From Microthyrium microscopicum (lineage: Eukaryota): a stretch of 64,000 nt of DNA. Shown in pieces: positions 25,065 through 53,200 of this stretch. The stretch is taken from the NCBI GenBank assembly GCA_010405405.1, contig MU004233.1, positions 1,563,122 to 1,627,121 of the forward strand, given 5' to 3'. Position 1 is the stretch's first letter; each line of letters begins with the position of its first letter. The position numbers and the translations under genes were made by a program. Under the pieces are notes generated by a model. It worked only from the letters and a program-made list of their open reading frames with translations. It had not been told where the DNA came from and did no database searches.

Positions 25065-26476
25065 TAAGGCCGCCGTTTCTTGCTGTTGGTGACTGCTCGT
25101 TGCGGGTTCAATTGTGCTGATCACTGAGGTTGGTTGAGGCGCTTTGTTGTGGTTCGTTGGGTGTTCGTTAGTATTGCAGTGGATGGATGCACAGGTTGCG
25201 TGAGATATGCTGGGAGTGGTGATGTTGCGCTGCGCGTGATGAGCAGGCGTCCCGATCTGAGATGGTTTTCTCCGAATGTTGCGTCAATATGCTGTGGCCA
25301 GCTGCTTTGAGAGTGATACGAAACCCGCTGTGTGTATGAGTGTCGTACAGTGGTCGGAGAATTGAATGGCGAACTGTGAGTAGTCAACTTCGATGGAAAC
25401 TTCAATATCCTTGGAAGTTGGCATCATTTCTCTCATTTAATTGGACTCAAGCAGAAATTAGGAACTGAGCGAGTGGGAGGCTCTCGCGATCCATGGTTAA
25501 GATCGGAATCATTTCATAATTGGATTATACACATGAAAATATATTGACGAATACCCGATTAATGTTGTATATCGTCGTAAGATTATAATACAATGTCTAT
25601 CAAGTCCTTAGTAGGCCTTGGCGGCCTAGGCAACAGTCGAGCGATGGTGGATTAATAGTTATGTAGTAATTAACGTTTATTTTTTTAAATGTATAAAAGA
25701 CGGTTATTTATAACGCTAATAGTTAATTGTAAGAAACGCTAATTAACCTTGTATTTATTAACTAATGGTTAGTATTTAAGTACTAACTGTTAGCTAACGT
25801 TTAGCTAAGTAGGCTAACTAATAATTAACTATTAATTAATAGTTAATTAACAGTTAGTTAAGCTCTAACGCTTAATAAGGCTCTACGCCTAAGACTACTT
25901 CTAGGTTACTAATTAGTTATAATTCTATACGCTAGTACTATACTAGCCTAGTAGTATCTCCTTTAGGATTGCACTATACCTAAAACCCTCTACGCTTTAT
26001 TATACTTACTTATATTTAATACTAGTTATTACTTAGTGTAATTACTATATTTAGTCTAGCTAGCCTACGCGGCTCTTACGTTCTAAGCTACGTTCTAAGC
26101 TATACCTTTAACCTCTATATTCTTATACCTAGCTTTTTTATCTACTTACTTATATAGCTACTTTATATAATTGCTGCTACTTATACCTATTATATACTCG
26201 CTACATCCTCTAATTTTGCCCTAGGGTAAGGATTAATCTATATAAAATATATACGCTTTTTACTACCCTCTAAACCTCTAACTTTAACTAAACCTAGAGG
26301 CCTAAAAAACTACTAGATTAGAGAATCTCTAGGTTCTAGTTTACGTAGAGAAGAAGCATACTCTTATTAATGTTAGCTAGCTTAACTAGGCTAAGCTCAT
26401 TAGTAGTTTAATTAGGGGTAATAGTAATAAGGATAATATAGAGGTAACGAGCTTATAAGGAAGGAAGACTAATAAC

Positions 26477-26678
26477 TATTACGGATCTACTACTATTAAT
26501 CCTATTGTAACATTATTAGCATCCCCTATTACGTAATGCTAAGGGCTTAGCGCCTAAGGATTATTTAGTATAGCTTACCTATAATTATTCCCTACTCTCT
26601 CTCTTAAATTCTTTGTATTAGTTTTCTTAAATTATATCTACTATTAGCTTATACTCTTGCGCCTATAGGTCCTTAATA
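26477..26678 (+). repeat. 5' LTR of element 1
   Basis: Direct repeat of 50097-50298, differing mainly by transitions. Confidence 0.92.
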
Positions 26679-26756
26679 TAAAACTAATACCTTATATTAT
26701 TTAAAAAATAATTCTAATTTTTAGTATATTAAAATCTAAAGATTTAATACGTCTAC

Positions 26757-27024
26757 TGTTAGGAACTAGGACACCTCTAGTTTAAGATAACTACTAATAG
26801 GATACGTCTACGTAGGATGAAGCGTTATTAGTTAGGTTAACTAATAATAACTTATTATAAATATAGATAGCTTAGCAGAGTCTTTATAGCTCTAAGTAAT
26901 AAAGAAGAGGAATTATAGGGGTCTAAGTAACTCCCTAGTAATTACTCTCATCCCTATTTTTATGTATCTACTTAAATCATAATAATTATAGTCTTTACCT
27001 ACTTAGAACGACCTATTTCTAATA
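26757..27024 (+). repeat. 5' LTR of element 2
   Basis: Direct repeat of 42985-43252. Confidence 0.92.
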
Positions 27025-30000
27025 TAGTAATTACTTCCTAACCCTTAAATACCTAAAGAAATTATTTTTATCTTTTATCTAATTAGAAATTATGTCTAAT
27101 AGTAGATATTTAGACCTTAGCGCCCAAATAAGACTTAGGTAGCCTTAACTATTAGGCTAAGGGTTACTAGCACTTATTATGCCCTAAACTAATATATTTA
27201 GAGGTCTATTAGACCTATCTAATATTAAACTAGCTAACTCTAACCTACCTAGGCCTAGGGAGACCTAAAATAACTTTATAATACACTATAAGAAAAAACT
27301 TAACGCGCTTATTAATAAAAAGAAGCTAGAGCTTAAGGTATAAAAGCTAATAGCAAAAGCTAGAGCAATTTAGTTTAGTAAGCTTAAAACTATTTAAGAG
27401 TTAGAGAACTTTAGCTAAGTTAATATAATAAGACCTAATTAGCATCTTTTAAGCTAAGCTCTTGCCCTCTTAGAACCTTTAAACTAAGATAGGCCTAAGA
27501 TAGAGCTTTATAAGGGAAAGAGTCTTTAAGAATATATATCTTAGGTTAATAACGTTAAATAAAAGTTCGTTAAACCCTTTTATTAGGAGAGTATTTATAA
27601 CTAGCAACTTTACTAGTATATTTATAGACGCAATTAGCTTAAGAAAGAGCTATTATAAATAGGATTAGATAATCTTATCCTCTATAAGGAGTCCTAAGAC
27701 TTAGGATTCTAAAAGATATAGTAAGTAGTCTAAGACTATGCGCTAGGCTATCTAAGCTACTCTATAAAGTAAGAATATATTACTTTTAAGAAGTTCTAAA
27801 CGATTAAATTAGGTTAATACTGCCCTTAAGAGCTCTATAATAACCTCCTTAAGTTATAGAAGGAATAAGGATATAACGACTAGAAAGGTTGCCTCTTTTA
27901 GTTCTATAGGGGCCTCCTTAAGAATATATAGAAGAAGATTCTCTTTAATAAGAAGTTTACTACCGCTATAGTTAAAGAGGCCCTTAAAAAGGCTAACTTA
28001 TACTAGACTTCTAGTTCTATAGAGGCTAAGGCCTATTTTACTCCTAAAAAGGCAAACCTAAGATAATCTTTCCTAAAATAATGCTTATACTCCTTAGAAG
28101 ATAAGTATAAGTATAAGAAGGGCTTAAAAGAGCTAAGAATACCTAGAAAGTCTTTCTACTCTTTAAAAGATAATAAAGTAGAATAAGCTATGCCTAAGAT
28201 AACTTAGAATATAGATATTTTACTAGAGTCTAACCTAAAAAAGGTTAAATGCTTTAAATATAGTAGACTTTACTTTAAAACAAAATACCCTAAGCTATAA
28301 GGGAAAAATAAGGCTATAAAGTTATAAACTAGGACTTAGTAGCCTCTCTTATTAATAAGACAATCTAGCCTAGCGCTAAATAGCTTTATAAGACTATTAT
28401 TACGTACGTCCTAGAGACGTTAAGGGCTAAGAATAATAACTTACCTAGCAAGGTAGACTTTATAAGACTAAAGTTAAAGCAAATATGCCTATAAGGGAGT
28501 CTAAGGAACAATAAGGGCTAAGAGGCCCTATCTCTAGATATTATAGTTAATTATAGGTTATGCTTTAACGTTATAGATATTAAGCTAGCTAAAAGACTTT
28601 AGCTCTATATTACTCCCCTCTTTAAGATACTTATAACGTATCTAGATAGTACTCCTATGTAAATTTATAGAGTTATAGAAGCTATAGTAATAGTAATTAA
28701 CTTAAATAGCCTCCCTAAGACTAGGATAGAATTATTTTATATTATAAACTCTCTACATTGCCCTATTATTATAGGAATACTCTAGTTAGAAGAGTAGAAT
28801 CCTTTTCTAGACTTTAAGAATAAGACCCTTACATAAAAGTAACCTTTTAGTAGCTTCTATAGTAAAATAGAGACTATAAATGCTAATAAGTTCTCTAAGT
28901 TAGCTTAGGATAGTTTATCCTAACTATTTAATTATTTAGTTAGGTTACTAGACCTAAATTTATTTATAGAAGAGCTCTTAAGTAAGTATTTATAGTTCGC
29001 TAAAGCCTTTAGTAAATAAGATACGCTTAAACTAGCTTAATATAGTTTATAAGACCTTAAGATTAACTTAGAGCTAAGTGCTATAGTACTATATAAACCT
29101 ATTTATAGCCTCTTAGAGGCTAAGTTAGTTATTCTACGTAAGTACTTAGATACTTACCTTACAAGAGATTAAATCTAGAAGTTAAGATCTCTTACTAGAG
29201 CTCCTATCCTCTTTATAAAGAAGAAAGATAGGATATTATAACTCTATATAGACTACTAAGGCCTAAATAATATTACTATTAAGGATTAGTATATATTGCC
29301 TCTTATTAAGAAGTCTTTAAATAGACTTTAAGGCGCTAAGTTCTTTACTAGCCTTAATTTACGTAAAGCTTACTACTATTTATACATTAAAGATAGTAAT
29401 AAGTAGAAGACTACATTTAAGACTAAATATAGGACATTTAAGTATATAGTAGTCCTATTTAGACTTATGAATACTCTTACAGCCTTCTAAGCGTATATTA
29501 ACTAAGTATTAAGAGGCTTAATAGATATAATATATATTGTTTACCTTAATAATATCCTTATTTACTCTAAAACTAAGAAGTAATATATTAAAAACGTCTA
29601 AGAAGTCCTATAGTAACTTATAGAGTACTATTTATACGCAAAACTATTTAAGTATAAGTTTTATACTAGTAGTATAAAGTATTTAGGTTACGTTATAACC
29701 CTAAATAGTATTACTATAGATTAGTTATAAGTTAATACGTACCTAGATTAGCTAAAACTATATAACGTATACTAAGTAAGGGAATTTATTAGCTTTATAA
29801 ACTACTATCGTTAGTTTATTACTAGATTCTCCTATATTGCTATACTACTAAACGCCTTAACCTAGAAAGAACTAGGTTAGGCCCTAAAAGGCCTAAAGCT
29901 ATAATAGGAGGAGTCTATAGATATTAAATTACTACTAGACGCCTTAGATTCTTTTAATAAACTAAAAGATTCTTTTATAAACGTGTTAATTTTAGCTTAT

Positions 30001-32366
30001 TTTAACTCTACGCTTCCTATATAGTTAGAAACTAATACCTCTAAAAAGGTAATTTATAGGATATTAAGCTAAAGATAGCGTAATAAGGGCTAAGATAGCC
30101 TATAGAAACTTATTATATTCTATTCTTAGAAATTATCTCCGCTAGAGAGCTACTATAAAACTCTATAATAGGAGTTCTTAGCAATTATAGATTCCTTAAA
30201 AGTATTTAGAAAGTACTTATAAGGCTTACTAGACTAATTTTAGGTCTTAATAGACTATATGAACCTTAAATTGCTTAAAACGATACTAAAAATATTATCT
30301 ATATACGCAAGGTAAGTAGATTTGCTCTTAAAATATAATTTTAATATTAAGTACTACCTAAGTAAGATAAATTTAGCTAATAGACCCTTAAGACGTCTAG
30401 ACTACGTTAAAGAAGGCTAAAGAGAATAAAAAAAGACTATAGAAGCGTTACTTAACCTACTCTATAATAAGTTATAGCTTAATAACGCTTCTATAGCTAA
30501 AACTAACGCTATTAGACTTATAGACTTTATTATTATATACATTAGTATTAATACGTAGCATCCTACTATAAACTAACTTAAGAGGGGTTAAGATAAGCCT
30601 ACTAAGACCTAGAAGCATCTAAAAATAAGCTCTAGTAAGATTTTAGCTATTAATAAACTACCTCTAGCTAAGAATAACTTAGACGAAGCTAAATAGATAA
30701 GTAGAAATCTCGTTTTCGTTAAGGAAGAGTTATAAAAGAAGAAAATCCTATAAAGGTTCTATAATAATACTATAGAAGGTAATTATAGAGGGTTAAAGAA
30801 GATACTTAAGAAAATTAAGCGCTACTATACCTAGGATTATGTCTAGAAGGACGTTAAGGACTATTATAAGGCTTATTTTAACTACTAATATAATAAATCT
30901 ATTAAATAAGCTTAAAAAGGGTTGCTAATAGCCTTACTAGTCCTAGAAGCGCTATAAGAAGACATTACTATAAATTTTATTATAAATTTGCTCCTAAGTA
31001 TTTATAATAGTTAAATCTACAACTCTATTATAGTAGTTGTTAATAAATTAACTAAAATAGCCTACTATGTCCTAATAAGAAAGGACATAGACGTAAAAGA
31101 CCTTATTAAGATCTTCTTATAAGAGGTTATATACCTATATAGCGTACCTTATACTATTATATCTAATTAAGGACCTCTCTTTATTTCTAAGTACTAGAAA
31201 ATGTTCTTTTATTATCTTTCTATTCTTAGAAAGCTCTTAATAGTATTCTACCTATAGACTAATAATTAAATAGAGCGCTTAAACTAGGAGGTTAAGTACT
31301 ACTTATAAATTTATAGGTATTAAGAATAGGATAATTAGGCAAGATAGTTTAGTTTAGCTAAGTTTAACTATAATAATAGTATTTACTTATTAACTAGGGT
31401 TACTTCTTTTGTCGTATATACTAAAAGGAACCTCTATGCTCCTAAATTAGCTAAAACGCTATTAAAAAGTATTATACCTAACGCTAAAGGAATAGTAAAC
31501 TATATTCTATTCCTATAATGCGCAATAAGGGACAAATTAGCTAAAGTATAGCTATACTAGGCTAACTAGTATAATAAAGAGAAAAAGGACGTTTATTTAA
31601 ATGTTAGTAACTAAGTCCTACTTAATATAAAGAACATTTAAACTACTTATATTAAGAAGAAGCTTAATATTAAGTATATAGGTCTCTTTAAGATCGTAAA
31701 GGTTATAAACGCTAATACTTACTAGCTTAACTTCCTAAAGAACGTACAAGTCTATAATGTATTCTATATTTCTCTATTAGAGCTATATAAGCTAAACCTC
31801 TACTTTCTATAGAAGTCTATATTACTATAGAATTCTTTAAACCTAGAAGACCTAGATATATATAATATAGAGAGGATAATAAAGCATATAGTAGATAAAA
31901 GGGGTAAATACTACTACCTTATAAAATAGAAAGGTTACTTAGAGTCTAAATTAACCTAGGAGCTTATAGCTAACCTTTCTTTAACTACTTTTAAGCGCTA
32001 TTACGTAAAGTTAGCTAAGAAGGGTATTATACTAGTAATAAGTATAATTAGAGAAGTAATTAAATATAAAATAACGCATTTAGACGATGTTATAGATAGA
32101 TTAACGAATCTTAACCCTATAAGACTAAAAAGACAGCTAAGAAGGCTAAAGAAGACCTAAAAGACTTAAGATGAGCTTTTAAAGAAAAGGGATAGTTATT
32201 TCATAATTTTCTTACTAATTAGAACCTAAATTAACTTCCTTATACGTATATTATAATAAATTAACCTAAAGTAACTTAAAAATAGTACTAAATAATAAGC
32301 ATATAAGAAAACTGCTAAGTTATAAATATATAAAATAACTTAAAATAATACGTAAAATAAGTCTCT

Positions 32367-32428
32367 ATACGTATATAAGGGATACCTCTTTAAGAACCCT
32401 TTGTAACGCAAAATAGAGTTAAAATACG
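32367..32428 (+). repeat. 62-bp direct repeat, copy 1 (copy 2 at 42241-42302), bracketing the antisense gene
   Basis: ATAC(G/A)TATATAAGGGATACC(T/C)CTTTAAGAACCCTTT(G/T)TAACGCAAAA(TA/CG)GAGTTAAAAT(A/G)CG at both positions. Confidence 0.88.
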
Positions 32429-33159
32429 TATTAGAAAATATATAAAAGAATAAGTAATTTCTAACTAAGAGTTAAATTAGCTATATAATAGTTCTATAAG
32501 GGTATCTACTAATAAACCTATCCTTAGGAAGTCCTAAAAGGGTATCTACTAACTAATCTATTCTTAAAGGACGTAAAATAACTTAATATAATAAGAAATA
32601 ACCCTGCTTAGCTAATTAAGGCTAAGTATAGATAATATTAAATTCTAAAAGACTTAAAATAACCTATCTAACTCTATTTTAACTTAAAAAGAAGCTACCT
32701 AGCCTATCTTACGCTTTTTCGTAGCAAAACTTATAACCTTAACCTTAGAATAGTCCTCATTAGTATAACTATCCTTATAGAAGGCCTTAATAGCCTTTTT
32801 AATATAGCCCTTAACCTCTTAGCACTTAGAAGCGCTAAGATAGGCCTTATAGCGCTTAAGAAGTACTTAAGAGCTTATAAGGGTATTAGATAGAGCTCTT
32901 TTAATATTAATAAGTTACTATAGAATAGTTAGATACAAAGTAACCTACTATAGATATAAAAAGACTTACCTAAGATATATTAGGTTCCTAAGGATTAATA
33001 ATACGCATAAAGTCTATACGCTAGGAATATAGCGCATTATAGCGCTTAAAGTACTTAGAAGGATAGAATTAGACATTAGTAGCTAAGAGAGCTAGATAAG
33101 CTATAATACGCTTCTCTAATTCTAAAAGGCCGTTATCTACTAGCTTTTAGGTAGCTTTA

Positions 33160-33381
33160 TGTAAAGAGCTAATGGGCGCGACAGGCGAGCAGAAAGTAGC
33201 TAGTATTGTAGGATCTAAGTACGGAGAGAAGAGATCTAGGAATATAGCTATGAATGCAAAGATATAGGGCCTAGGGGATCCTTAGACATACTAACCCTAA
33301 ACGGGATAAAGAGATCTTATCTACAAGATTAGATCTCTATATCTAAATACTATAATACTAAACCTATAAGGATTCCTTATA
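33160..33381 (-). repeat. 3' LTR of element 3
   Basis: Direct repeat of 40651-40872, adjacent to the PPT complement. Confidence 0.92.
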
Positions 33382-36300
33382 TAACTCCCCTCCTCCAAAA
33401 CAGACCTTATGGGCTATATCCTAATCTAATCCGTTCTAGTCTAGTCTAGGCTAATCTAGGCTAGGCTAGGCTAGTCTATGTGAATACAAAACTCCTTTAT
33501 ATACATTACTACTAAGGGATATAGTAATATACTATCTACTTACCTTAGTACTATCTAAATCTATTTAACAAAGAAGAGGATGTCTATTTAAGCTAGTTCG
33601 TAGTATTCTATAATTCCTTTAGTAGCGTAAATTAAAAACTAAACTAGAGGTATAATGCTTTAGTAAAGATAAATAAATATAACGCTTTTTATGCTATATA
33701 ATCCTAATCTATAGGTAGTCTATTAGCATTATAATCTTCTTCTTTAACTTTATTTACTAGTAGGGACTAAGAAGGGTATAGACTAGGCTTCTAAGGATAA
33801 AGCCTATAGAATTCCAATATAGCATTAGGTACGTTAATAGCATCTTTTTAGGGCTGCTAAGTTTCATTATAAAATCCTATCTATTTAATCTTATATTTAA
33901 GTACTTTATTCTTGCCTTTACTATCTTATTTACTATTAATAATAGCATTAATAAGCTATTCCTCTTTACCTTCTTTTTTACTAATAACTACTAGGGGCAG
34001 GTTTAATTTCTATAATAGGTATACGTTATTATTAATTAGATATAGTAGCTAGGCGTAGAATACTAGGTATATCTTTATTAATTTAGGAAGATCTAATTTA
34101 TAGGTTACTCTATTAATTTTGCACAATACCTTAAAGAGATTAGCGCTTTTACTATTAAGTATTTTTAAAGGGTAAGTTATATTATAATTTTAAACATTAA
34201 GGCGTACCTAGTCCCTAAGATAAAGATCTAGTACTAGACGTTAATACTTATTAGCGTAGAGCTTTTATTAAGCCTAAGCCTAAACCAATTACTCTTTTAA
34301 GAACTTATAAAGCTTCTCTTAACTATCCTATACTTAATTAGTAGCAACGACTTCTTTACGCGTTATAATAAAAGCGTACAATACTTTGAGTAGTAAATAG
34401 TAAGTAGACTTAAGTCCTAATTTTAGTAGAAAACCGTTTTATACTTTAAAAGGTATAAAACTAGTAGTAGCACTTACGATAGAATTTACTATAAATTTAG
34501 TAAATAGTAATAGAGCTACCTAATTATCCTAATCCTAATTAATAAAGGATTTAAGATACTATTTTAAGGTAGTAATAGTTATTTCAATAATGCCATTAGA
34601 CTCTAGATACTATATAGTACTTAATCTCAATATAACGCCTATACGTTCGTATAGGCGACCCTAAAAGGTAGATATAAATTAAGTTCCTTAATCTAAAAGG
34701 ATAGAATCTAGCTAACCATATAGCTTCTATACTTAATTAATAAATGCTATAACTATTATTTCTAGTAAAAGACTTAGAAGGGTAATAAACTATCATAATC
34801 GCGTTAAATAATTAATAATAACTATAATATGTTAATAAACTATACCCTAGTAGGTATAGCGTAGCAGTAAGACAATAAAGTCTATAAAGATATTAGACTA
34901 AGCCTAATCTAGCAGAGAGAACAAGTAAAGGAGCCCTTACTTCTTTTAGTGTACTAGTTTTAAAAAGACGTAGTAATAACCTTTAATATATTTCTTAATA
35001 TATTCTAATATTCTTAGCTATTAATAATCTTATTAAAGGTAGTAGTAGGTTATTATAGTTTCTCTATAATCTATAACTTTATATTAATGCGCTTATTTTA
35101 TTATTTTATTCTATAAATACGTCGTTAGTATAAATAATTTTTATTAATAGAGGATAGTACTATTTAGTAGAGCTTTATAATTTATTAATTTAATTTAATC
35201 CTAATCTAGTATACTAAAAGATAGGAAGTAGTCTTTCTATGCCTTTGCTAGTTAGATCGCAATAAGTAACTTATCTCCCTTACTTACCTTTATTACTTCT
35301 TGCATAAACTGCTTTAAGTTAAAATCTAGAGATTTAGTATTAACTAGTAGCAAATTATCTAAACTAGCTAAAGCTCTATTCCTAAAGCTCCCTACAATAG
35401 GTTCTAAATTAGACTCTCCTACTATAGTAACATCTAGCTTATCTAACGCAAGCGTAGCTATTTGCATAAAGGACAAGGTAATAGAATTGATAAGGATTAT
35501 AGCTAGTTTAATAGCTTATTTAGTGCTAAATTAATATAAGAATAGGAGCAGTCAATGCTATTACTTAACCCATAGGTCTTTATTACTCTAGAGTACGTCT
35601 TATAATCTTTAAGTTAAAGCGTTAGCTTTGCTATTATCTTTACTAGGGTAATACTTAATTAAGAAGTAAAACTATAATAGGAATTTAGCTTAGCGCATTT
35701 AACAACGTATAAGCTTCTTAGTCTTTATAAAGGTTTAAAGATTTTGATAATCTAAGAATACCTTTATAATATCTTTAGTACTAAATAACTTAGGCTCCTA
35801 TTCCTTAAAAGCGTAGACAACAGCGAGTAGTTCCTTATTATAAATATTATAATTACATTCTACTAGTAATATCTTTTTAGAGAGGAAGGCAACTAGTCTT
35901 AGATCGCTATTTATATCTTTCTATAATAATATAGTAGCATAAGCCTAATCTAATGCGTCTATCTCTATCTAAGTTTCCTTAGTATAGTTAAAGTATTAAA
36001 GTATTAGCGTGCTAGTAAAGTCCACTTTTAGCTTCTTAAAAGCTTATTCTTTAGGCCTATTAGGATCCTAGAAGAATATAGCTAAAGTATCCTTCTAAGT
36101 AAGATTTATTAAGGGTGCTACTATAGTAAAGTAATTAAAGATAAACTATTAGTAGAAGTTAGTAAATCTAAGGAACGCCTAAACATCTTTAAGATAGCTT
36201 AGTCGTTCCTAGTTAACTACTATATTAATCTTTAAAAAGTCTATCTTAATGCCTTTTGTAGTAATAATTAGACTAAGGTATTTTACTTCTTAAATAGTAA

Positions 36301-39300
36301 ACTCTAACTTCTTAATATTAAAGAATAGGCCTACACGTTCTAATACGTCTAGTACTAAATATACGTAGGCGTTATGTTCTTCTAGTATCTTACTAAATAC
36401 TAGAATATTATCTAAATAAATAGTTACAAAATCGTCCAAAAATTACATTAGCACATAATTAATATACGCTTAGAATATCCCTAGTCCCCCTATAAGGCTA
36501 AAGGGTAGCACTTTAAACTTAAATAGGCTATAGTATATTAAGAATACTATTTTATATTTATCTCTAGGTTTAATATAGATACGTTTAAAGGTAGTAATAA
36601 CGTTAAACTTAGAGTAATACTTTACCTTTATAAGGCGTATAAGCATCTTACTAATAAGTAGTAGGACATTACTATTTTTAATAGTAATATTATTTAACTT
36701 ATAGTAATTAATATAGACGCAAATACTTTCTCCTAGCTTGCTTATACAAAGTATAGGTATAGTATATTAAGATTTTAAACTTATAGTAAAACTACGCTAA
36801 AGTAGACTCTTAATATATTATTTAATAACTAAGGCTTGTTTTAGCAATATTAATACAGGTTAGCATTTTAGAATTTTAGCATTAAGGATAAAGTCAATAG
36901 CGTAGTCATATTTACTATAGTAAGGCATAAGGATATCTAAACGCTTTAGATTAAAGACTTCAAAATATTAATAGAAACGTTCTAAGATAAGTTTTAAGAT
37001 CTCCTCTTTTAACAAATAAGGGCAATCTTACTTATCTTGCTATTTAAGATAATCTTCCTCTAATATAGTATATATAGCAAGGTTTATAGTAAATCTATTA
37101 TTATTATCTTTATTACTATTAGGAGGTTTCTTTTCTTTTTCGTTATTAAAATCTTTAGGCTAGAATATATTAACTATAGCGTCTTTACGCTTTATTAGTT
37201 TCTTAAACGCTACTATAGATATAAAAGTAATGTCTAATTCTTTAGGTAATTCTAAGTTTGTAGATCATCCTTTTAGGTCTATAATAATTAGGCGTTATAA
37301 TATAATATAATTTATAATATATCTTATACTATAGAAGGTTAATATTCTTAAACCTCTATGTAGATTAACTTTATATTAATCTAGCTAGGGTGCTCCTAGG
37401 ATTAGATTATAAGAGGCTACTTTTATAACGAAATAGCTAATCTGCTTAACGTAGTATTTAATACGTAGGTTAAGGATAGTAGCTTTATTAACTATAGATA
37501 CTAATTTACTATTAGTAAGTGTTACTAAGCGTGGATATACGAGTTAAAAAGTAGGAATATTATATTGCTAAAGATAATAAGGGTTAATAATTCCTATTGT
37601 ACTACTACTAGTATTAATTAAAATACTAGCGTTAGAGTAGGTTAAACGCTATAGTATAAATACTAAGCTAATAGTAGTCTATTATAATCTAATAATAGGA
37701 TCTTTCTTTTTAATATCCTAAAGTTATACTGCTAGTATAATAGAGGCTAGCAAGATATAGATAGTATATAAGTATACTAGTAAGACTCATTCCTTATAAA
37801 TAGTATCTTTATACTTAAGGCGCTAAATATATTAGTAAAGGTAGCTAAGTATTTTCTTAGTCTTCTCTTATGCCTTCTCTTTAATGTTTTTATAGTCTTC
37901 TTTAGCCTAATAGAATATTTCTTTAACTTTTTTAATATTTTAGTATTACTCTTTATTATATTAACAAAATATATCTTTTACGCGCTTAGTATTAGCGTTA
38001 AAAGTACGTTTCTTTCTTTTGTTATATACTTTAGTCTTATTTAGCTCCTCCTTATAGCTTAGCAAAGAAGCATCTAGTTTAAAGACTAATAATTATCCTC
38101 CTTAGTAGTATCCTTTATAGAGGGTTACTATTCTTTTTAAACTTTTATAAATATTATTACTAAAGGTACAATTAAGGCTTTAATCTTATTATTAGATAAG
38201 GGTTCCTAATCTTTACATAGTATAGTCTTATTAAAGTAGTAATAACCCTTTTATTTATAATAGATATAACGTTTATCTATTTTTAAGGCGTTAAAGACGT
38301 CTATAAGACAGTTAACGTTGCTAGTTTTGTTATTTTAGGCCCCTTTATTAGTAGACTAATTATTATTATAACTATAAGAGTTATTATTTATAGTAGCAGG
38401 CTTATAATTAATTTAGCGCGCTACTAAGTAAAGTTAAGCGCAAAATATAGCAAAACTACTAAAATGCTAGCCTATTAATAAGTCTATAAACTTATAATTA
38501 ATAAGATCTTATAATTTAATAATCTTTTTACGCTTAAATAGTTCTATATCTACTAAATTCGTTAAGAAGTAGCTAATAAAGGCTTAAAGACCTTCTATAT
38601 CTTTTATCTTAGCATCTAAGGACTTTAACTATGCCTTAGCATCTTTAAAAACATTCTTAGAGTAGTAATAGCTATCTAGGTCTACCTATATCTCTTCTAT
38701 AGTACTATAAGAGTCCTTTAACTTATAACCTTCGCGTATAACTATAATGCTATAGATAAGGCTAGTATAATAAACGTAAATAAACTTAATCTTCTTCTTT
38801 TTAGTAGAGACGTATAGATATATATTCTTATTAAGAAGTATATCTAATATTTTCTCCTTCTACTATTTATAGTATGTAGGTTTACCTTTAAAATTACTAG
38901 GTTCTTTAAACTTAGCAAGTATTACTAAGGAGGTACTATTAGCTACTAATAATAGTAAAATATAGCGTATTCCTTAGGCTTAAAGCTATAAGTATAAAAC
39001 TACTAGATGCGTTACTTATAGTATAGAACAACCTAAGAAGATATTATTCTCTAAATTATTTAAGTTAATATAGGCTTAGTTTAAATTCGTCTAAAGTCTA
39101 TCCTTAAGTTCTTAGACTTAGTAGTAAAGGTTAATAACTAACTTATAATATTATAGATTAATATTACGCTTCTTTACTAATTTAGTAAGAGCTACTTATT
39201 TATTTAAACAAGTAGTAGTTAGTGCTAACTTATAGTTATAGCGAATTTGGCTAGTAAGCGCTTTAAAATCTATTATTATCTACTAATAGATAGCTACCTC

Positions 39301-40650
39301 TTCCTATAGCACTTCTACTAATTTACCTAGTTAACTTACTTTTGTATTAGCGTCTATAAGTTCTCTTACTAGCTAATCTTAAAGTTTTTAAGTAAACTAA
39401 TAACGTAATGCTATAGTTTAATTAATTACCAACACGATATATAGTTATTTAAAGAATTAATCTTCTTCTATAAACTTAATATATTAGTCTAGATGCTTAC
39501 TATTAGACATTAATACATAATATTTCTAAAGAGTAGTAGAATCATTAGGATTGTCTTAAAGAACTACTAATATCTATTTCCCTACCTTTAGTCTAACTTC
39601 GTACAATACTTATATAAATAAAGGCTTCATGCTAGTAAGTAATATAACTTTACTATTAAGGTCTACTAGTTTTAGGAGCAGATAGAGTAGAAACGACATA
39701 GGAACGTTATGTAGTTCTTTTTTGCGTACTAGTAATTCTAGCTAGTAGTAGATATTAATAGGTAATCTTACTTTTAACGCGCCTTTATTTAGTAGACTAC
39801 TAATAACGACACTAGAGGTTATTACCTCTTTACCTTTTAATCCTAGCTCTTTTATTACGCTTGCTAGCGTAATAGGTATCATAGTTAATAGTCTAGTAAT
39901 AATCTTATAAGGTTATTAAATATTAATACTAACTTAAGTATTTTAACGAAGAAATTCTTCATCTTTATTATCTAAAGCTGCTTTAGGCAATAGAGGTAGC
40001 TTTTTAATAGATTTAACTACTAGGATGCTCTCTTACTATAGCATTAACGTGATAGTAGACTATTAATTAGTTCCTATATCTAGGGCGACTAGCTTCTTAA
40101 CGAAGCGGCCATCTCTACTACGGTAGGGTGAAACTAAGTAGCTTTAAATACTAACGCTACTACGCTTATAAGCAATATAAGAGTCACTTAATACTAGTTT
40201 AAGACTAGGAATAAGTAGCGCCTCACTTATAGTAATACGCAGCTAAATAATGCAGTGTTTTTTAATAAATTAGAACTAATTTAATAGATTTAATAAATAC
40301 GAATTAACAAGGAATAAGGTAAGTGTATTTTATAGTTAGTAGAAAGGAAGTAGTATAAACGCCTTTATGGATTTAAGAAGAATACTACGAGGCAAAGCTT
40401 AGGCCTCTAAGTAGTCTTTATTCTAGTAAATAATACTAAATTTGCGTTACTCTAGTTAGTATTTATAAATTTGCTAGCACCTTTAGCAACGCTAATCCTA
40501 ATTAAGGGTAGTGTCGCTAAATGCTAATTAGTTAGATCTATAGCATAACTATAGTAATTTAATAAGAATTATTAAACGCCTCTACGCGTTTATTAATAAT
40601 ACGCAAAATATACGCAGAGCGTAAAATTTAATATAGAGGTACTTAGATTA

Positions 40651-40872
40651 TATAAGGAGCTAATAGGCGCAATAGGTGAGTAGAAAGTAGCTAGTATTGT
40701 AGGATCTAAGTATAGAGAGAAGAGATCTAGGGATGTAGCTATAGATGCAAAGATATAGGGCTTAGGGGATCCTTAGATACATTAACCCTAAACGGGATAA
40801 AGAGATCTTATCTATAAGATTAGATCTCTACATCCAAACACTACAACACTAAACCTGTAAGGATTCCTTACA
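40651..40872 (-). repeat. 5' LTR of element 3
   Basis: Direct repeat of 33160-33381. Confidence 0.92.
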
Positions 40873-42240
40873 CTTTAATACCTATATAGTAATTAATAAG
40901 CGCGTAGGTCACGTAGAAGCTACCCTTAGTAATACTAGAGTGCAATAAGAAGAAATTAGCTACTAGCTACTTAGACATACGACTATAAACTAATTAGTAT
41001 CTAAATGCGTAGAACTAGACTAGAATTAGTTAAAATAAGTACTTACGACTTATAAAGAGTTACTACGTACTTATAAGTATACTAAATACTACTATAAAGT
41101 ATACGCTTATCCTTATAGGATAATTTGTTCTAAGAATTATTCTTAAGAGTATAAATAACCTTATTAATTATAACGCAAACTAAAATAAGCTTAGCCTTAT
41201 TATAAAGGTCTTTATAAGGAACAACCTACCTATATTAGTATAATATAATGTAAAATAAGCTAGAATAGGATATTACCTCTAAATAATCCTTAGTTAACTT
41301 TGTATTAAGGCATTTAATAAAGTACTTGCTTAAACTAACTTGCTAAGCATAATAATAATCTAAGTTAGGAATAAGGCAGAGTTTAGTAGTTAAAGGAGGA
41401 GAGAAATATACTACATAGACCTCTATATAATACTAATAAGGATTTAGGGTTAAGTAGTACTATAATAAGCTAAGTAAGGCTATAATGCTCTTATTAGCGT
41501 ATTCCTACTCTATCTTATCTTTAGAGACTACTTTAGTAAGGTCTATAATATTAGTAGTTAAGATTTAGTCATTATAGGACGTATTAATATTATTATTAGT
41601 ATTAATAGTTACTATAGTCTTGCTAGAATTAAAGTTGCCCTTAGTAAGGACCTAAGAGCCTTTAATGAAATCTTTAAGTAACTTATTTATATTAATGCCT
41701 ACTTTAAATAAAGATAGGTTTAAAAGTATATAGGTTAGTTAAGATAAGTTATTAAAGGTTAGAAGGGTGTAAAGTATACTAAAATAGGTTAAGAGGACCT
41801 AAGGAGGCGCTAAGTAGCCTAATAACTAAGAAGAGAAAATTTATAGTTACTAGAGAGGAACCTATAACGCAAAATAGGTTAGTAATAGTAATCTTTATAT
41901 ATATTTACAAAACTATAGAATTTCTACTTACCTTAAGATTTAGAGTATAAAAGATAAGAGATAGAGAATTTAGAGTAAGAAGGGTTATTTTATACCTAAA
42001 TCTCTCTACCTTCTTAAAATGGCTAAGTATTAACGTAATAGTACTTAGTAAAGACTTATAAGAGCCTTCTATAGTAAAAGGAAGTTATGCGTAGTATAGT
42101 AAGTACTTAAAGGGATTATAACTTCCTAAATAGAAAGGTACAATCCTAGCCTTAGAGTCTCTAAACTTTTAAGTAAGGATTTAAATACCTTACTATAAAT
42201 AACGTAAAATGACCCTTAATTAGACGCAAGAAGCGTTAAA

Positions 42241-42302
42241 ATACATATATAAGGGATACCCCTTTAAGAACCCTTTTTAACGCAAAACGGAGTTAAAATG
42301 CG
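42241..42302 (+). repeat. 62-bp direct repeat, copy 2
   Basis: Matches 32367-32428. Confidence 0.88.
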
Positions 42303-42984
42303 CCTCTAATCTAGAGCTAAATAAGGCTTATAGAGTAGTTTTACATATAAGTTATAGCTACCTAACCTACTATAAAGCTAATTATACTAAACTAATACAA
42401 ATTTAGTATATCTAATATAGTGTAACTAATTAAGTTAAGCCATATATATTTTAATAACTAGATAACCTATACTATATATAGGATAACTATCTAGTAGTAT
42501 TTTAATAAGATCTAATTAAATATAAATAGTAGCACTACGCTACGTTTATAGATAGCTTAATATAGCTCTAATAAAGCTAGTATTAACTAATCAAAACTCT
42601 AATAGAGCTAGTAATTACTTATTAGATATCTTATAGATATATTAGACCTTAATAACTAGACTCCTTTGAGTTTAAGTTAATATAGTTAATTATAACCTAA
42701 GACTAGTAGAAAATAGAGAGCTATTTATCTAGAGTAGGTAAAAAATAGAAAGCTATCCATCTAGAACGAGTTATATACTAAAGCTAGAGAATAAGAATAT
42801 TACTAAGCTATAGAAGACTCCTTAAGGTATAGGTAGCCTAATCCTATACGTTTAGTTAAGCCTTATCTTCTCCTAAGTCTTAGTATAATAGGGTATAGTT
42901 AAAAGCTATATATAAGTATAAGAAATATCTAATAAAACCTTTAAATATGCTCTTTAGGACGAATAGCCTTAAGAAGGGGGATAA

Positions 42985-43252
42985 TATTAGGAACTAGGAT
43001 ACCTCTAGTTTAAGATAACTACCAATAGGACACGTCTACATAGAATAAAGCGTTATTAGTTAAGTTAACTAATAACGACCTATTATAAACATAGATAGCT
43101 TAGCAGAGTCCTTATAGCTCTAAGTAATAAAGAAGAGGAATTATAAGGGTCTAAGTAACTTCCTAGTAATTACTCTTATCCCTATTTTTATATGTCTACT
43201 TGAACTATAATAATTATAGTCTTTACCTACTTAGAACAACCCATTTCTAACA
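42985..43252 (+). repeat. 3' LTR of element 2
   Basis: Follows the PPT, ends in CA and is followed by TSD TCTAC (43253-43257). Confidence 0.92.
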
Positions 43253-46200
43253 TCTACTTATATAAATATAAAATCCTATTTTTAAATCCTAATAGATTTA
43301 ACCTACTAGTATAGTAAATACGCAAACTCTTAACCTTTAATCTTACTAGAAGCTTAGACTTTTAGCATCTAATTAAAGGGCTTAAAGAACCTTAATTAAC
43401 CTAGAACTTCTATTCTATTAGACTTATAGGTTAATAATCTTCCTTTATTATTACTACTTCTCTCTACTACTATACCTATAATAAGACTTTACTTATTTTA
43501 CTATACTATAATAAGCCCTAAAGACGAACTATAATAAATTAGACCTTTTACTCTTTTCCTTAAATTACTTATTATACCTTTATAATCTATTTATACTTTA
43601 TCTTAAGACTTCTTAGCGCTTACGCTTATTACTTATATTTACTTTATATTAAACCCTTATCTTATTATAAGAGATACTAGTAAGACTTATAGAACTTATT
43701 CTATATCTTATCTTTATAAGTAATAGCAATTAGGGACTTAGAATACTACTTAGTTTATAATTATGCTACCTTATACTTAGATTAATAGTAATAATAATAA
43801 CGCTATAATAAAACTACCTCGTAGCTAAGCTTTATACTATAATTCCTTATACTCTTATTATAGCTCTATAGCTAAGGCACCTCTACTATTTAATGTCTTA
43901 AAAATTGCTAAGAGTAGCTATATCTATAGCTAATTATAATTCTAAAATAAAAATAAAGAGAAGGCATCCTCTACTAATTCTTTAATTACTACTCTCTAAT
44001 TAGTAGACTAGGCTTAGATTAAAGAGTTACTATTAAACTACTAGATATCCTCTTACCTTATTACCTACTAATTAATTACTCTAAATAAGAAGAATTAAGT
44101 ACCCTTAGCATAACTCTTTTATAAAAAAGTTACCTTCTAAGCCTAAGAAACTATTCCTCTAAATAGTACTATTAAAAGCGTTTCTCTAGACCCTATACTT
44201 ATACGTTATACTTAAAGTAACTTATATTTAGAAATTATTAAGACTTATAAAGAATTCCTTTATAATATTACTATATTACTAGAACTTTAGTTTAAATAGC
44301 TACATAATTATATTAAATTAGCCTAAGTAGCTAATCTCTATATTTAAGAAACCTACGCCTAACTAAATAATATAATAGATACTTACTAATACTATAAGTA
44401 AGGTATTAAAGATATAACTAATAAACTTAATAATACTATAGTTATAACTAATAAAGTATATATAAAAGTAGATTAACTTTACTAATAACTTAACTACGTA
44501 ATTAAAGCTAACTATAAAAATAATAAACGCGTCCTTTACTTAGAGAATACCTATAATATAAATTAATAGGAACTTAATAAAGTACTTAATAATATTAAAT
44601 AACTATATACCTCTTATACTAAGAAGCGTAATAAGATTATAGCTCTTTACCTCTAGAATAAAGATCTTAAAGACTAGCTTAGTTAGTTTATATATAAGTC
44701 TAAAGAGACTATCTACTAACTTAATTTTAATAATAAGTAAGTAATGCCTCCCCTTTATTAATAAGTCTTTTATATTTAAACTAATAGTCTAACCCTAGTA
44801 ATATCTAGATTCTTAGTTAGTAATAAAAGTAAGAAATATAAATAAAGTAATCTAAGTAAATACTCTAGTTATAACCCTAAATAATATCTTACGTAAAAGC
44901 TTTACGTTAAAGACTATTTTTATAATAAATAAGCCTCTTTCCCTACGAAATTAGATACTACTATTTAAATACGTAGTAAGACTCTTAATATTACTCTTAA
45001 GTTTATTAAGAATCGCGCGTAATATAAATTACTAAACCTATACTCTAATATAATAGAGTTCTAAAAGAACTTAAATTAATATACCTAGAAGCGCAATACT
45101 TATAAAGATACTATTACTTAGTTATAAAATTCCTTAAACTAAATAAAGAAGACTAAGAAGCTTGCTCTATATATTACTAAGTTTAATAGTAAAATTACTA
45201 ACGCTAGCCTTATAAAAGTAGATAAGGTTACTTATCTTAAATATATAATTATTAAAGAAATTACATAGTGCCTATTCCTTTCTAAGGCTACTACTATTAC
45301 TAAATATATTAATAAGTTATAAATTATTAACTAAAACCTTAAACGCAAAACTAATAATAAGGATAAGCTATCTAGTAATTAAAATAATAATAATAGTAAC
45401 TAAATTAATAACTAAATTAATTACGTACTATACTATAAAGTTACTCTATACTAACGTCTAATATAAGATTATTACTATACTTAATATAACGAACAAGGTT
45501 ATAACTATAAAGATAAAAACTTAAAGTATAAAGATAAGCTAGCCCTCTCTAATTCTAATATCTCTACTAAGCTTACTAGCATTTATCTATAGCAAGATAA
45601 TACCTAACTATAAAACTTAACCCTATAGTATAATTACTTATTAATATATAATAATTATTACTACTAAGACTAAGGAAACTAGACGCTCCTCTATAACGCT
45701 ACGTAGAGAAGCTAAATAAAATAGAAGCGTATAATAAATAATAAAAACGTTAAATAGAGGCTATTATTAACTACCTAAGTAACTCTAAGACTAAAAGTAA
45801 CCCTATAGGCATAGCTATTATCTATATATTAGTAGCCTACGTTCCTATTAACTAATTACTAAAATATTTCATTCTAAAGATAGGCTAATAGTAAAGCATT
45901 ACTAGTAATATTCTTATTAATAATAACGCGTATACTAAAATAAAAGTCCTAATTAATATAGGTAGTAATACTTTTAGTATTATTAATCTTTATTACCTTA
46001 AAATTTATAATATTCTATTAGTAGAAATAACTAGACCTTACTACGCTAAAATAGCTAATAGCTACGCTATTATAAAGATAACCTATATAGTAGCTATTAT
46101 ATTACGCATTAGTATCTACCTTAAGTAGATTCTTTACTTCATAATAGAAGTTACTAACTATAATATAATCCTTAGTAACCTATAAGTAAATAAACATAAA

Positions 46201-48781: not shown

Positions 48782-50096
48782 TATTCTCTCTAACTATAGT
48801 TTATAATTTATATCTATATTTTAGTAATGTTTCTACGAGCATATTAATATTATTATTTACCTAACTACTACTTAGTACCTATAAGGTAATAATATTATAA
48901 AAATATTAGTTATAGTACTAAAAGCTTACCTTAGATACTTTATTAACTAGTAATAAAACGACTAAGTAGGATTACTACTATTTACTAAATTTAAAGCTAA
49001 CTATACTATCTATACCTTTACTAAAATAAATCCTTTTTACGTACTTAATAGTTATCTTCCCTAATTAGGATTAGAACTAATGCCTCTAAAAGCCCTCTTA
49101 GGAACTAAGCTAACTTAGACTAAGTAATAGCTTACTAACTAGTATCTCTATACTTATATTAACCTTTATAAATACCTTTATAAATAGATCTTATAGTCTA
49201 CTACCCTTATAGAAGAGTAAGCTAATAAGACTTATTAACTAGTACTAAACCTTAAACTAGGCGATTAAGTATAACTTAATACTCGCTATTATAAATCTCT
49301 CTAACTATTAAAGTCCCTTAATAATAAATCTACTAGACCTTTTAAAATTATTAAAAAGATTAATATCCTTACCTATAAGCTAGAATTACTAAAGAAGATA
49401 AAGATTTACTTAATCTTCTACGCTTAGCTACTCTACCTTATCTTTAAATATACTATAGTATTCTAAGAACCTAATAACCCCCCTTTAATTATAAATATAG
49501 ATAACAATATAAAATAAGAATAAGTAGTTAATTATATTATTAATAGTAAGATAGGCATTATAAAGGGCTTTAATAAAAAGAAAGTCTTATAGTATAAAGT
49601 TTAGTTTATAAAATAGAACGACTAGAACTACAACCTTAACTAGTAATTATAATTAGATCTTAACTCTTACCTAGAGCTAGTTGCTAAATATTATAACTAG
49701 AACCCTAATAAACTTAAACTATACTCTATATTTATAAACCCTTAGAAGAAGAAGAAGAAGAAATATAATTTAGATAGAATTCCCTTAGAATAGTAAAAGA
49801 ATACTACTACGCGTACCTTAATACTTAGTCTATAAACTAGAGTATTCTAAAGATATCTTAAGGTTTATTAATACTTCTTAATAGTTACTTTAGTAGGCTA
49901 GAGGGTAGTATAAGAAATAGGTATATATAGTAGTTATATATAAAAGAAGGTTATTATCTTTACTTTTATTACTTTTATATTTTATATTTTATACCCTAAA
50001 AAAGCGTTAGAATTATAGGACTATATAACTTAATTATAAATCTTATCCTTTTATAAGTTTTTAGCTTAGGAGCGCTAATCTTAGAGGAGGGAGTAT

Positions 50097-50298
50097 TATT
50101 ATAGATTTATTACTATTAATCTTATTATAATATTATTAACATCCTTTATTACGTAATACTAAAGGCTTAGCACCTAAGGATTATCTAGTATAGCTTACCT
50201 ACAACCATTCCCTACCCTCTCTCTTAGATTCTTTATATTAGTTTTCTTAAATTATATCTACTATTAGCTTGCACCCTTGCGCCCATAGGTCCCTAATA
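50097..50298 (+). repeat. 3' LTR of element 1
   Basis: Preceded by the purine tract AGAGGAGGGAG and followed by TSD ATAAC. Confidence 0.92.
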
Positions 50299-53200
50299 AT
50301 AACTAATATATTGTCCTTAGCCTTTATTTTAAGTATAGGGAATCCTATAGGCTTATTAATAAAGCTAGTATCCTTAGTAGGGATTACGATAGTAAATAAT
50401 TAGAAGTAAGTAGCTATAATCTTATAGATAAAGAATTAATTAATTTAGCTAGTACGTATCTTACTATCTTAAGTATATTAAATAAAATTACTAAGACTAA
50501 GAGCTATACGACGCTTAGAAACCTTAAAGTAAGTTAGTAATATATAGTAAAATTATAAAGAATTATTAATAAATACTATAGAGAGCTATAGAAAGGAGGA
50601 AGAGTAATAAAGAAAATAATAATATAAAAAGAAGGTTAAAGTTTATAAGGATAAAAAAAGTAAAAGGGTAATAAAAAGGATAAAGGTAATAAAAAAGATA
50701 AAGGTAATAAAAAGAATAAAAGTAATAGATATACTTAGAGGTATATATTACTTCTAATTAGTAGTATGTTACTTTAAGTACTTATAAGTCCTAAAAGGTA
50801 GTTTTCTTATACTATTTAAGTAGTAAGTTTCCTAAGTTAAAAAGGTTTAGACGATTATAGTTATTATTATATACTTTAATAATTATATCTCTTAAGTAGT
50901 AATCTACTTAGTTACCTTTTACTAAGAGATATAGGTTATCTTTAATATAGTAGTTAGTTTAATGGCTTGTAATAGATAGGAATAGATAAGCATTATTACT
51001 ATAGATTAGCTCTTTAATAGTAGTGTTAGCTCTAAGATTCTCTTACTTAGATTATAGTATTAAGGTATAAAAGATAGATAGATATAACTTATAAAGCTTC
51101 TGTAGCTTTTTAGTTAACTTAGGCTCTTTATGCTTATATAAACCTATAAGAATAAATTAAATAGTTTAAAGGAATATTTTATATTTAAGTAGATTATACT
51201 TAGGGTTAATATAATTAGTATAGTAAATAAAGGTCTTATAGAGACTAAAATTAAATATTAGCTAGAGCGTATAGATTAAGTTAAGATTAGAATATACTAA
51301 TACTAATCTTTACCTATTAGGACGTTTACGTTAGATAGTAGGCTAAGCTCCTCTAAGAACTAGTACTAATATAAACTAAGATATACGTTAGGATAAGCTT
51401 TATTATAATACTATATAATAGTATAGATCTTATGCTTTGCTACTTCCTATTAGGCTAGATTTATAATACTAGCTATCTAAGTAGTAGCTTCTAATGGGAC
51501 ATTAGCTATAGTTCCTTCCTTACCTTTATCTTTAGATATTTTATTATTTAGTTTATTAAACTATAGAATACTTAGAGTAGCGATTAATTGACTATAAGAG
51601 GTAGCATAACCTTAACCTTAACTACCTTAACCTCTATTACGACTAGTACTAGTAGATAAGGTAGTTATAGATTTATAAGTAGAGCTATATAAACCTTAAG
51701 TAGTACTAGGAATAAATAAAGCTTAAGTTTTACTAGTCTTACTACGTTTATTAAATTTGCTATAACCTTAAAAGCTAACGTTATAGCTATATAGATTTTG
51801 CTCTATAGATATAATAATAGCCTTAAGAAAAATATAAAGGATTTTGTAAACTTATAAAATATTTTATATAAATATACTACGTACCTCTTAAGCTATAAAC
51901 TTACCTATTAAAAGGATATTAGACTTAGTAAGTCTAGTAGACGTAGTAATAAAGAAATAGGCTAGTATAGTGTAGTTAATTTCATTTTTCTCGTTATTAG
52001 TAACCTTATTAGTAATAATATCTTATAAAGTATTAATATAGTGCTTCTTAATATATTTACTTTAAAGCTAGATATAGAGTAGAATAAGGGTAATAATTAA
52101 CTATTAAGTATATTCTAAGAGGCAATATAATCTAAGATATTAAATTAGAGAAGATAGATAAGGCTAATCTATAAGAAATAAAAATAAACGTAGTATCTTT
52201 ACGTAGTTAGTAAAAGCTACTAATATAAGAATAGCCTTAATTAAGATAGAATATATAAGTAAAGTTATGCTCTTATATTTAGAATAGGCTAAATTTAGTA
52301 AGTAGCTTATAATTAGGTTAAGTATTAGAGTAAGTACCTTAATAGCTAGAGGTTTTTTATAAATACCCTACTTCTTAGAGAATACCTTTTTCTTTATTAT
52401 AATTATAACGTTATCTATAAATTTATATTAATATATAGCCTTAGAATAGAATTAGCTATTATTAAAGATATTATAATTTAGATTAATATATTTAGTTATA
52501 GTAATAAAATATATACGATAAGAGTAGTTTCTACTTAGACTAACTAGGCTATAGTTTAAATTTTATTAAAAGTAGTTACTAATAAAGAATAGAGTAAGTA
52601 CGTAGAGGAAGACGTCCTTACTATTAATCTAAAGCTTAACTTCTTTATTAAGTTAAGTAATAGACTTTAGAGCGTTAAATATCTCTAATAAACTACTACT
52701 ATAGGGTCTTAAGGTAAGTAAAAAGATATTAGATTAATAAGCCTACTCTTTAAATAAAAAGGTAGTAATAATAGTATATATTTCTATTAAAGAGTAATAT
52801 ATATTTATATATAAACTAAACCTATTAATAAATATAAGGATAAGAAATAAGATAACTTTACGCTAGTTAAGATTAAATTAATTAATAAGTACTTAACGCC
52901 TAAAGTGTTTAATTTTAAAGAGACTATAAATTAGTAGGCTCTTAAAGAAGGGCTAAAGTTCTTATTGTTTAGTATTCTAAATCTAATAGATATACTACTA
53001 AGCCTTCTTATTCTTATAGAATTTAATAAGAGCTTTACCTTTAGTAGGATGTAAATTAATAGAGAGAAATAGTTTATAATTAATACTATACTCTTTATTA
53101 ATATAGAACATACTATTACTAAATTAATATAATATAAAGGACTTAAGAACGAAAGTAGTATTATTTTTAATAATAACTATTTCACCTATAACTATAAGAG

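Follow-up and report, generated by a model that had tools for sequence, protein, structure and literature searches.

What does a long terminal repeat (LTR) retrotransposon carry in some 3 kb of DNA between the end of its pol gene and its 3′ LTR? The question is raised by element 2, a complete Ty3/gypsy chromovirus on the plus strand of a 64,000-nucleotide stretch of Microthyrium microscopicum contig MU004233.1 (this whole stretch is called the window, and coordinates refer to it unless another locus is named). The element has been degraded by repeat-induced point mutation (RIP). An initial annotation proposed that the extra DNA holds a stably carried, intron-bearing accessory gene on the minus strand. 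This proposal is supported by other copies that span the site of a nested insertion and by a homologous gene in an intact relative, locus L045. With a probability of roughly three in four, element 2 is a member of a fungal chromovirus lineage with an opposite-strand accessory gene located after pol and before the polypurine tract (PPT). The gene is assigned to the lineage because its homologue in L045, likewise antisense, occupies the same place and shares the intron phases.

Element 2 is delimited by a 5′ LTR (26758..27025) and a 3′ LTR (42986..43253), both read on the plus strand, and by the target-site duplication (TSD) TCTAC at 26753-26757 and 43254-43258. The LTRs differ by 24 transitions and no transversions over 268 nucleotides (nt), and since they differ by transitions alone, they were identical before RIP. 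Pfam searches with stops read as X identified the RIP-damaged pol from reverse transcriptase (RT) to chromodomain (29218..31980, plus strand), in the order RVT_1 (E = 3.7e-10), RT_RNaseH (2.3e-14), SH3_Tf2-1 (6.7e-9), and Chromo (1.8e-4). The chromodomain occupies residues 1721-1760 of the frame from 26701, corresponding to 31861-31980; its match (21.8 bits) and that of Integrase_H2C2 fall under the Pfam cut-offs because of RIP damage. A 13-mer PPT, AAGAARRRGGATA, directly precedes the 3′ LTR (42971..42983, plus strand), and a second copy was found in the last codons of pol (32182..32194, plus strand); these are the only two matches in the window, where 0.05 were expected. Once a nested element is excised, the distance from the pol-end copy (32194) to the PPT (42971) is ~3.06 kb, in agreement with the ~3 kb of net extra DNA originally estimated between chromodomain and PPT. 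About 2.09 kb of this accessory interval falls between two copies of a 62-nt direct repeat.

The region between the repeats is enriched in intron signatures on one strand. A strict signature was defined by a GTA[ACT]GT donor, a CTRAY box 8-35 nt before a YAG acceptor, and a length of 40-110 nt. The 2057 nt that separate the repeats contain five such donors on the minus strand (2.43/kb) and none on the plus strand, while the remaining RIPed DNA of the window holds 14 in ~74.6 kb of strand length (0.19/kb); the minus-strand interval is thus ~12 times denser. Among these five donors, three are clustered within 90 nt and represent alternatives to one another. Minus-strand intron signatures, as initially noted, are therefore real, while the count of five is reduced to four predicted introns that are supported (41931-41862, 41276-41226, 41046-40983, and 32969-32918), three of them in the coding part. 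For a fifth intron (candidate donors 41702, 41229, 41070, and 40980), no frame-consistent version was found.

The predicted gene reads leftward through the window, all of its features being on the minus strand. An upstream exon or leader (41932..42168), in which one minus frame has few stops yet one plus frame does likewise, is followed by a 70-nt intron (41862..41931; GTAAGT ... TACTAAC ... TATAG) located in a 5′ leader or an N-terminal extension. The first coding exon (41277..41615) encodes a cysteine-rich domain homologous to L045 exon 1, and ends at a 51-nt phase 0 intron (41226..41276; GTAATA ... TACTAAT ... TAG) that preserves the frame and takes out two in-frame stops. The second coding exon (41047..41225) precedes a 64-nt phase 2 intron (40983..41046; GTAAGT ... 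TACTAAT ... TATAG), with an alternative acceptor at 41001. The third coding exon is split by the nested element into a 5′ part (40878..40982) and a cut-off 3′ part (32970..33159), and is followed by a 52-nt phase 0 intron (32918..32969; TAG, then GTAAGT ... ATCTAAC ... TATAG). The last exon (32699..32917) ends in KKRKIG and a stop, so that the terminal KKRK of the initial annotation is indeed read at the 3′ end. The canonical introns 41931-41862, 41046-40983, and 32969-32918 each link the lowest-stop frames, in the succession f1, f2, f0, f1.

Over its 493 codons, the spliced reading is interrupted by 25 internal stops (5.1%), each of them TAA or TAG, the triplets that RIP yields from CAA, CAG, or TGG. 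This rate is below that of the true pol frame (86 stops in 1160 codons, 7.4%), and the other five frames of the model contain 42-87 stops (8.5-17.7%). When two pol genes were examined in 494-codon windows, the lowest stop count fell in the sense frame for 14 of 14 and 10 of 11 windows. The purine fractions at the three codon positions of the antisense frame are 0.55, 0.47, and 0.36. The window copy itself is a dead pseudogene: counted from the codon aligned with the L045 start, 16 stops accompany 340 sense codons, and cysteines have been turned into tyrosines by RIP.

An intact relative was reached through pol. In a control word-based protein search, an RT-RNase H stretch as heavily RIPed as the interval matched 12 proteins (best E = 7.9e-53, 38% identity), five of which were aligned and used to fetch 109 loci, 30 from a viral collection and 79 from metagenomes. 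The same type of search with the frame 42168-41782 gave no match. Among the 109 loci, L045 was the closest by pol, with a single 1258-residue high-scoring segment pair (34% identity, 721 bits; next locus, 563 bits) that spans all pol domains of element 2 and extends to the last codons. L045 is an intact, un-RIPed metagenomic chromovirus (49% G+C) with a gag-sized frame and a 1342-codon pol containing protease, RT, RNase H, integrase, SH3, and chromodomain. In the part beyond pol, up to the 3′ end, the minus strand offers a start codon (ATG at 6844) and four open segments, separated by GT..AG introns at 6550-6507, 6342-6296, and 6153-6103 (44, 47, and 51 nt) with CTGAC or TACTAAT boxes; spliced, these give a gene of 266 codons from ATG to stop. 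A further, candidate leader intron is possible at ~7141-6949. The product combines an acidic N-terminus with basic clusters, a helical tail, and six cysteines arranged as CxxC, C, CxxC, C. L045 likewise contains two copies of AAGAARRRGGATA and no more, at the equivalent landmarks (5660-5672 and 7580-7592).

Homology between the two antisense genes was assessed with a RIP-aware log-odds matrix, in which BLOSUM62 was passed through a RIP channel that mutates each C/G with a probability of 0.5 (expected score, -0.59 per position). L045 exon 1 scored 53.8 against the minus frame of the window, compared with 26.9 ± 3.2 for shuffled queries (maximum 35.2, n = 60). When random 98-residue pieces of real open reading frames from other loci served as decoys, none of 110 reached 45 (maximum 44.0). 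A longer L045 open frame scored 66.8, a value reached by 0 of 60 real 235-residue decoys (maximum 53.2; Gumbel P ~1.4e-4). In a six-frame scan of the whole window with L045 exon 1, the antisense match ranked at the top of 324 chunks and ended at 41276. The 104 aligned columns comprise 27 identities, 27 pairs reachable by C>T or G>A, and 50 that are neither; CKMPDPDH opposite CLIPNLDY is an example. The alignment stops at a frame-preserving intron in both genes (NCLE followed by GTAGGT in L045, DYLE followed by GTAATA at 41277/41276 in the window). Both genes have three coding introns with phases 0-2-0, and their second exons differ by five codons (179 nt in the window, 164 nt in L045).

Several results weigh against this homology, and against a gene in the interval altogether. 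Significant similarity is confined to exon 1, since L045 exons 2-4 score within the range of shuffles (21.4, 29.4, and 18.7). The L045 protein scores below the shuffle mean against the interval of L001, the second closest element, so no homologue is detectable there though L001 has an interval. The splice sites of the window gene were picked partly so that frames stay open. The L045 ATG aligns with ATT at 41606-41604, a triplet that RIP cannot make from ATG, and no start codon was found for the window gene. Pfam recognized no family (TRP28, PF04195, included) in five translations of the L045 gene, and HMMER found no match to the second-exon frame of the window among 1.84 billion representatives. 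The second-best score of the scan was 47.1, at 14041-14223 in a lysine/arginine-rich tail behind a transposase-like frame; it is probably spurious, and shows that the scores of real sequence tail off more slowly than those of shuffles.

The empty HMMER search and the probably spurious score would also fit a long non-coding 3′ region, whose intron-like strings, fairly open frames, and match to L045 arose by chance in AT-rich, TA-rich RIPed DNA. The six frames of the window interval likewise match no Pfam family (TRP28 again included), and permissive alignments in this composition yield many false matches: a permissive blastn comparison of the window with itself gave long matches of 57-60% identity that nhmmer did not confirm and that were treated as noise. 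This explanation is nevertheless considered very unlikely. It would have to attribute to chance a 12-fold, strand-specific excess of intron signatures, a stop rate under that of true pol, scores beyond all 110 and all 60 real-protein decoys, a best match of the window that lies in the expected reading frame and stops at a splice donor, and intron phases equal to those of L045. Three further searches were uninformative or empty. A tblastn search of the 109 loci with the spliced model returned nothing at E up to 10, an Atlas search gave a best score of 0.77, which is uninformative, and a scan with bacterial promoter and terminator models, of no relevance here, was empty.

The choice of strand was weighed separately, since the coding strand might be plus, with a sense frame after pol, env-like or other, that has been broken by frameshifts. 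A dicodon model written in purine/pyrimidine letters, which are invariant under RIP, recognized the correct frame of pol in 31 of 31 and 24 of 27 windows. On the long exon, this model backs the register and not the strand (+21.0 for minus, +19.7 for the codon-aligned plus frame). Because it is blind to strand, the strand assignment rests on stops, introns, and the relative L045. The plus strand of the interval is also purine-rich, like the sense strand of pol, and an open plus frame spans 41783-42090. These points speak for plus-strand coding. However, 42 stops interrupt the aligned plus frame, compared with 25 on minus; the plus strand has no intron signature, yet its frame must change at least twice; the minus strand is where un-RIPed L045 carries its spliced ATG-to-stop gene; and none of the plus frames of the L045 interval matches the window above background. 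Plus-strand coding is accordingly regarded as highly improbable.

The 62-nt repeat, which had been described as 62 bp long and as flanking ~2.1 kb, is real and lies at 32367..32428 (left copy) and 42241..42302 (right copy). The copies are separated by five transitions and one transversion, and weaker similarity, which begins at 32331 on the left, stretches the repeat to ~98-110 nt, fading across a further 36-50 nt. The left copy lies ~270 nt past the stop of the antisense gene; the right copy, which holds TATATAAGGG, lies upstream of the gene. A degenerate 57-nt pattern of the repeat core matched twice in the window, in both cases the repeat itself (0 of 100 shuffles gave two matches), and had no match in metagenome contigs. 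When the window was compared with itself in purine/pyrimidine letters, the LTRs and this repeat were the only matches that stood out from noise.

Near-identical direct repeats at the borders, which are missing from L045, would fit an unrelated mobile element (for example, a small terminal-repeat element) or a captured host gene, present in this copy or a recent sublineage only. The T/C-rich third codon positions, unlike those of pol, point the same way. On the other hand, neither a TSD nor TG..CA ends were seen at the repeat borders, a homologous gene occupies the corresponding position of L045, as judged from pol and PPT, and other copies carry the same DNA across the nested site, with a summed contig depth resembling that of the 3′ end of pol (depth being a weak guide that gives no copy number). 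A mobile element or captured gene is thus judged very unlikely. Acquisition as a cassette bounded by the repeat, as proposed in the initial annotation, finds no support, given that L045 has no counterpart of the repeat.

Judging from the loci compared, the 62-nt repeat is particular to element 2, and the duplicated PPT is what its relatives have in common. L001 carries the same pair of PPT 13-mers, at 6167 and 947. This pattern suggests that the accessory interval arose, or is maintained, between two PPT copies. The copy at the end of pol could serve as an internal plus-strand primer, or could be a scar of the origin of the interval.

Evidence for other copies was obtained from contigs of the one DNA sample that contains the stretch, in three runs. 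Contigs that join 33154 to 40873, skipping exactly 7718 nt, were found in all three (2, 2, and 3 contigs). The pieces that skip the nested element diverge from the window, with 18 of 310 other letters (~6%) in one record and 53 of 446 (~12%) in another. At least two further types of copy therefore have the interval DNA without the nested interruption. A joint between the two 62-nt repeat copies, as expected for a copy lacking the interval, was absent among the best-supported joints listed. One joint, running back from 42252 to 32383, lies inside the repeat and is uninformative.

These findings are consistent with a mechanism in which the antisense gene would be transcribed from integrated DNA, by its own promoter and towards pol. 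Introns that are antisense to the genomic RNA of an element are not spliced from it, pass through reverse transcription, and are kept in new copies. The introns of this gene would accordingly be invisible on the complementary genomic RNA, and every new copy would retain them. The window copy has been killed, with RIP responsible for its 16 stops and the cysteine-to-tyrosine changes, and the third coding exon has received a second LTR element.

The product may act in the nucleus, bind zinc and nucleic acids, and regulate expression or silencing of the element that encodes it. The cysteine pattern and the basic clusters of both proteins (RKRK and KKRRIG in L045, KKRK in the window gene) make metal-dependent binding of nucleic acids in the nucleus the best guess; the clusters themselves fit a nuclear protein, such as the anti-silencing or targeting factor initially suggested, and prove nothing. 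Two features highlighted in the initial annotation require qualification. The protein was described as acidic, whereas the product as read has 4.6% D+E and 10.3% K, and acidity would come from undoing G>A changes; the N-terminus of the L045 protein is acidic. The (I/V)(I/V)DLT sequence, likened to a SUMO-interacting motif, in which a hydrophobic [VIL][VIL]x[VIL] core adjoins acidic residues, does read IIDLT at 41549-41535, but it is not conserved in L045, the only relative compared, which has YQDLEGD at this position, and the two isoleucines sit in an insertion. AlphaFold prediction of L045 exon 1 without an alignment gave a mean confidence (pLDDT) of 42.8 and an unusable fold. A word-based search with this exon returned one unnamed protein, 100% identical, and nothing named BRTN, and a scan of viral contigs yielded one weak locus, L110 (34% over 41 residues).

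Antisense genes located between pol and the 3′ LTR are already known. Zhao et al. (2011, Virology 417:248) reportedly described one, brtn, in Boty-like elements of Botrytis cinerea and Sclerotinia. Antisense open reading frames at this position are described for Retand, Grande, RIRE2, and Boty of Botrytis/Sclerotinia (PMC7264820, PMC8365987, PMC4227169). Boty, like element 2, is a fungal chromodomain-containing Ty3/gypsy element with an antisense gene between pol and 3′ LTR (same sources), and a BRTN-like transcript was reported in Monilinia (PMC5987419). The gene described here has three coding introns and a six-cysteine domain. Among plant elements, Retand (TRP28 domain), maize Grande (gene 23), and rice RIRE2 share the long region between pol and 3′ LTR and its antisense open reading frame (PMC11963269, PMC7264820). 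Within a family, most copies contain the frame, roles in the nucleus or in DNA binding have been proposed, and the Grande protein is nuclear and has its own promoter (PMC11963269, PMC7264820). The nuclear nucleic-acid-binding role suggested above matches the proposals made for these plant frames (PMC11963269). In contrast, the plant systems belong to another kingdom and to non-chromovirus lineages, TRP28 (PF04195) is matched by neither the window interval nor L045, and the word "intron" does not appear in PMC11963269 or PMC7264820.

HBZ of HTLV-1 and APH-2 of HTLV-2 have been cited as analogues of antisense retroelement genes (PMC11963269). These deltaretrovirus genes share with that of element 2 the position as an antisense gene; they are transcribed from the provirus against the genomic RNA and encode nuclear regulators. 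HBZ is spliced. Both start in the 3′ LTR, whereas the gene described here lies wholly within the internal region, and no sequence kinship is expected. The antisense-intron retrotransposition reporters of the his3AI and neoAI type follow the same logic, by which an intron facing against the RNA of the element stays in the genomic RNA and reaches new copies. In these artificial reporters, the intron is spliced from the RNA of the element and interrupts the reading of the marker, whereas the introns here belong to the antisense gene itself. In the literature searched, whose coverage did not extend to the primary brtn paper, no intron-bearing antisense gene was described in a fungal LTR element.

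To our knowledge, accessory genes of LTR retrotransposons are few, and we know of none with an established function. The recurrence of antisense genes behind pol, in plants and in Boty (brtn), suggests a general advantage. The presence of the same gene, with the same intron phases, in a RIP-killed copy and in an intact element provides a concrete protein that can be expressed (L045, 266 residues), as well as a natural example of antisense orientation keeping spliceosomal introns within a retroelement. Annotating the interval as a captured host gene would be a mistake. The RIP-aware protein alignment also recovered homology where HMMER had found none among 1.84 billion representatives.

A fuller reading is put forward tentatively, as one that we would sooner bet against than for. 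Element 2 and L045 might represent an undescribed accessory-gene family of fungal chromoviruses. Its hallmarks would be an antisense gene of several exons whose intron positions are conserved, a basic and probably nuclear product with six cysteines, and a PPT-bracketed interval; the protein might regulate transcription of the element or host silencing, the antisense introns would ride through reverse transcription, and self-similar introns would hint at intron multiplication within a retroelement. With respect to the introns, the three coding introns of L045 resemble one another and have a TTGGCGCAAAYTGAC-like core. The interval of L001 holds four minus-strand CCATTYTGGCRCA motifs, at 177, 603, 6319, and 6961. 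Self-similar introns may form a small family that resides in retroelements.

The nested insertion is a Ty3/gypsy LTR element on the minus strand (33160..40872; LTRs ~33160-33381 and 40651-40872), flanked by the TSD CTTTA at 33155-33159 and 40873-40877. Its borders and TSD confirm that 33160-40877, the segment originally proposed for excision, is the correct one to remove. The nested LTRs differ by 25 transitions and no transversions. Its RT lies ~4.2 kb from its own 5′ end, with ~1.7 kb more upstream sequence than in element 2. Within the stretch, contigs of a run guessed to be RNA match solely the LTR of this element. One of the matching contigs, 7469 nt in length, appears un-RIPed, and intact relatives of the nested element may therefore exist in the species.

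The window as a whole consists of alternating blocks of ~49% and ~25% G+C, with RIP marks in the AT-rich blocks. Element 2 has a TpA/ApT index of 1.91 and a (CpA+TpG)/(ApC+GpT) index of 0.16, compared with 0.66-0.71 and 1.3, respectively, in the G+C-rich blocks. The translated frame at ~13500-14230 (plus strand), the tail of which gave the second-best scan score, resembles the C-terminus of a putative pogo/Fot1-type DDE transposase, followed by the lysine/arginine-rich tail. Just outside element 2, segments 26475-26695 and 50095-50314, which are 23.6 kb apart, are 98.6% alike once C/T and G/A are collapsed; they may represent the two LTRs of an older element that received element 2 and its neighbours as insertions. 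Finally, the RIPed DNA at 59197-59336 contains three tandem copies of a 41-nt unit.

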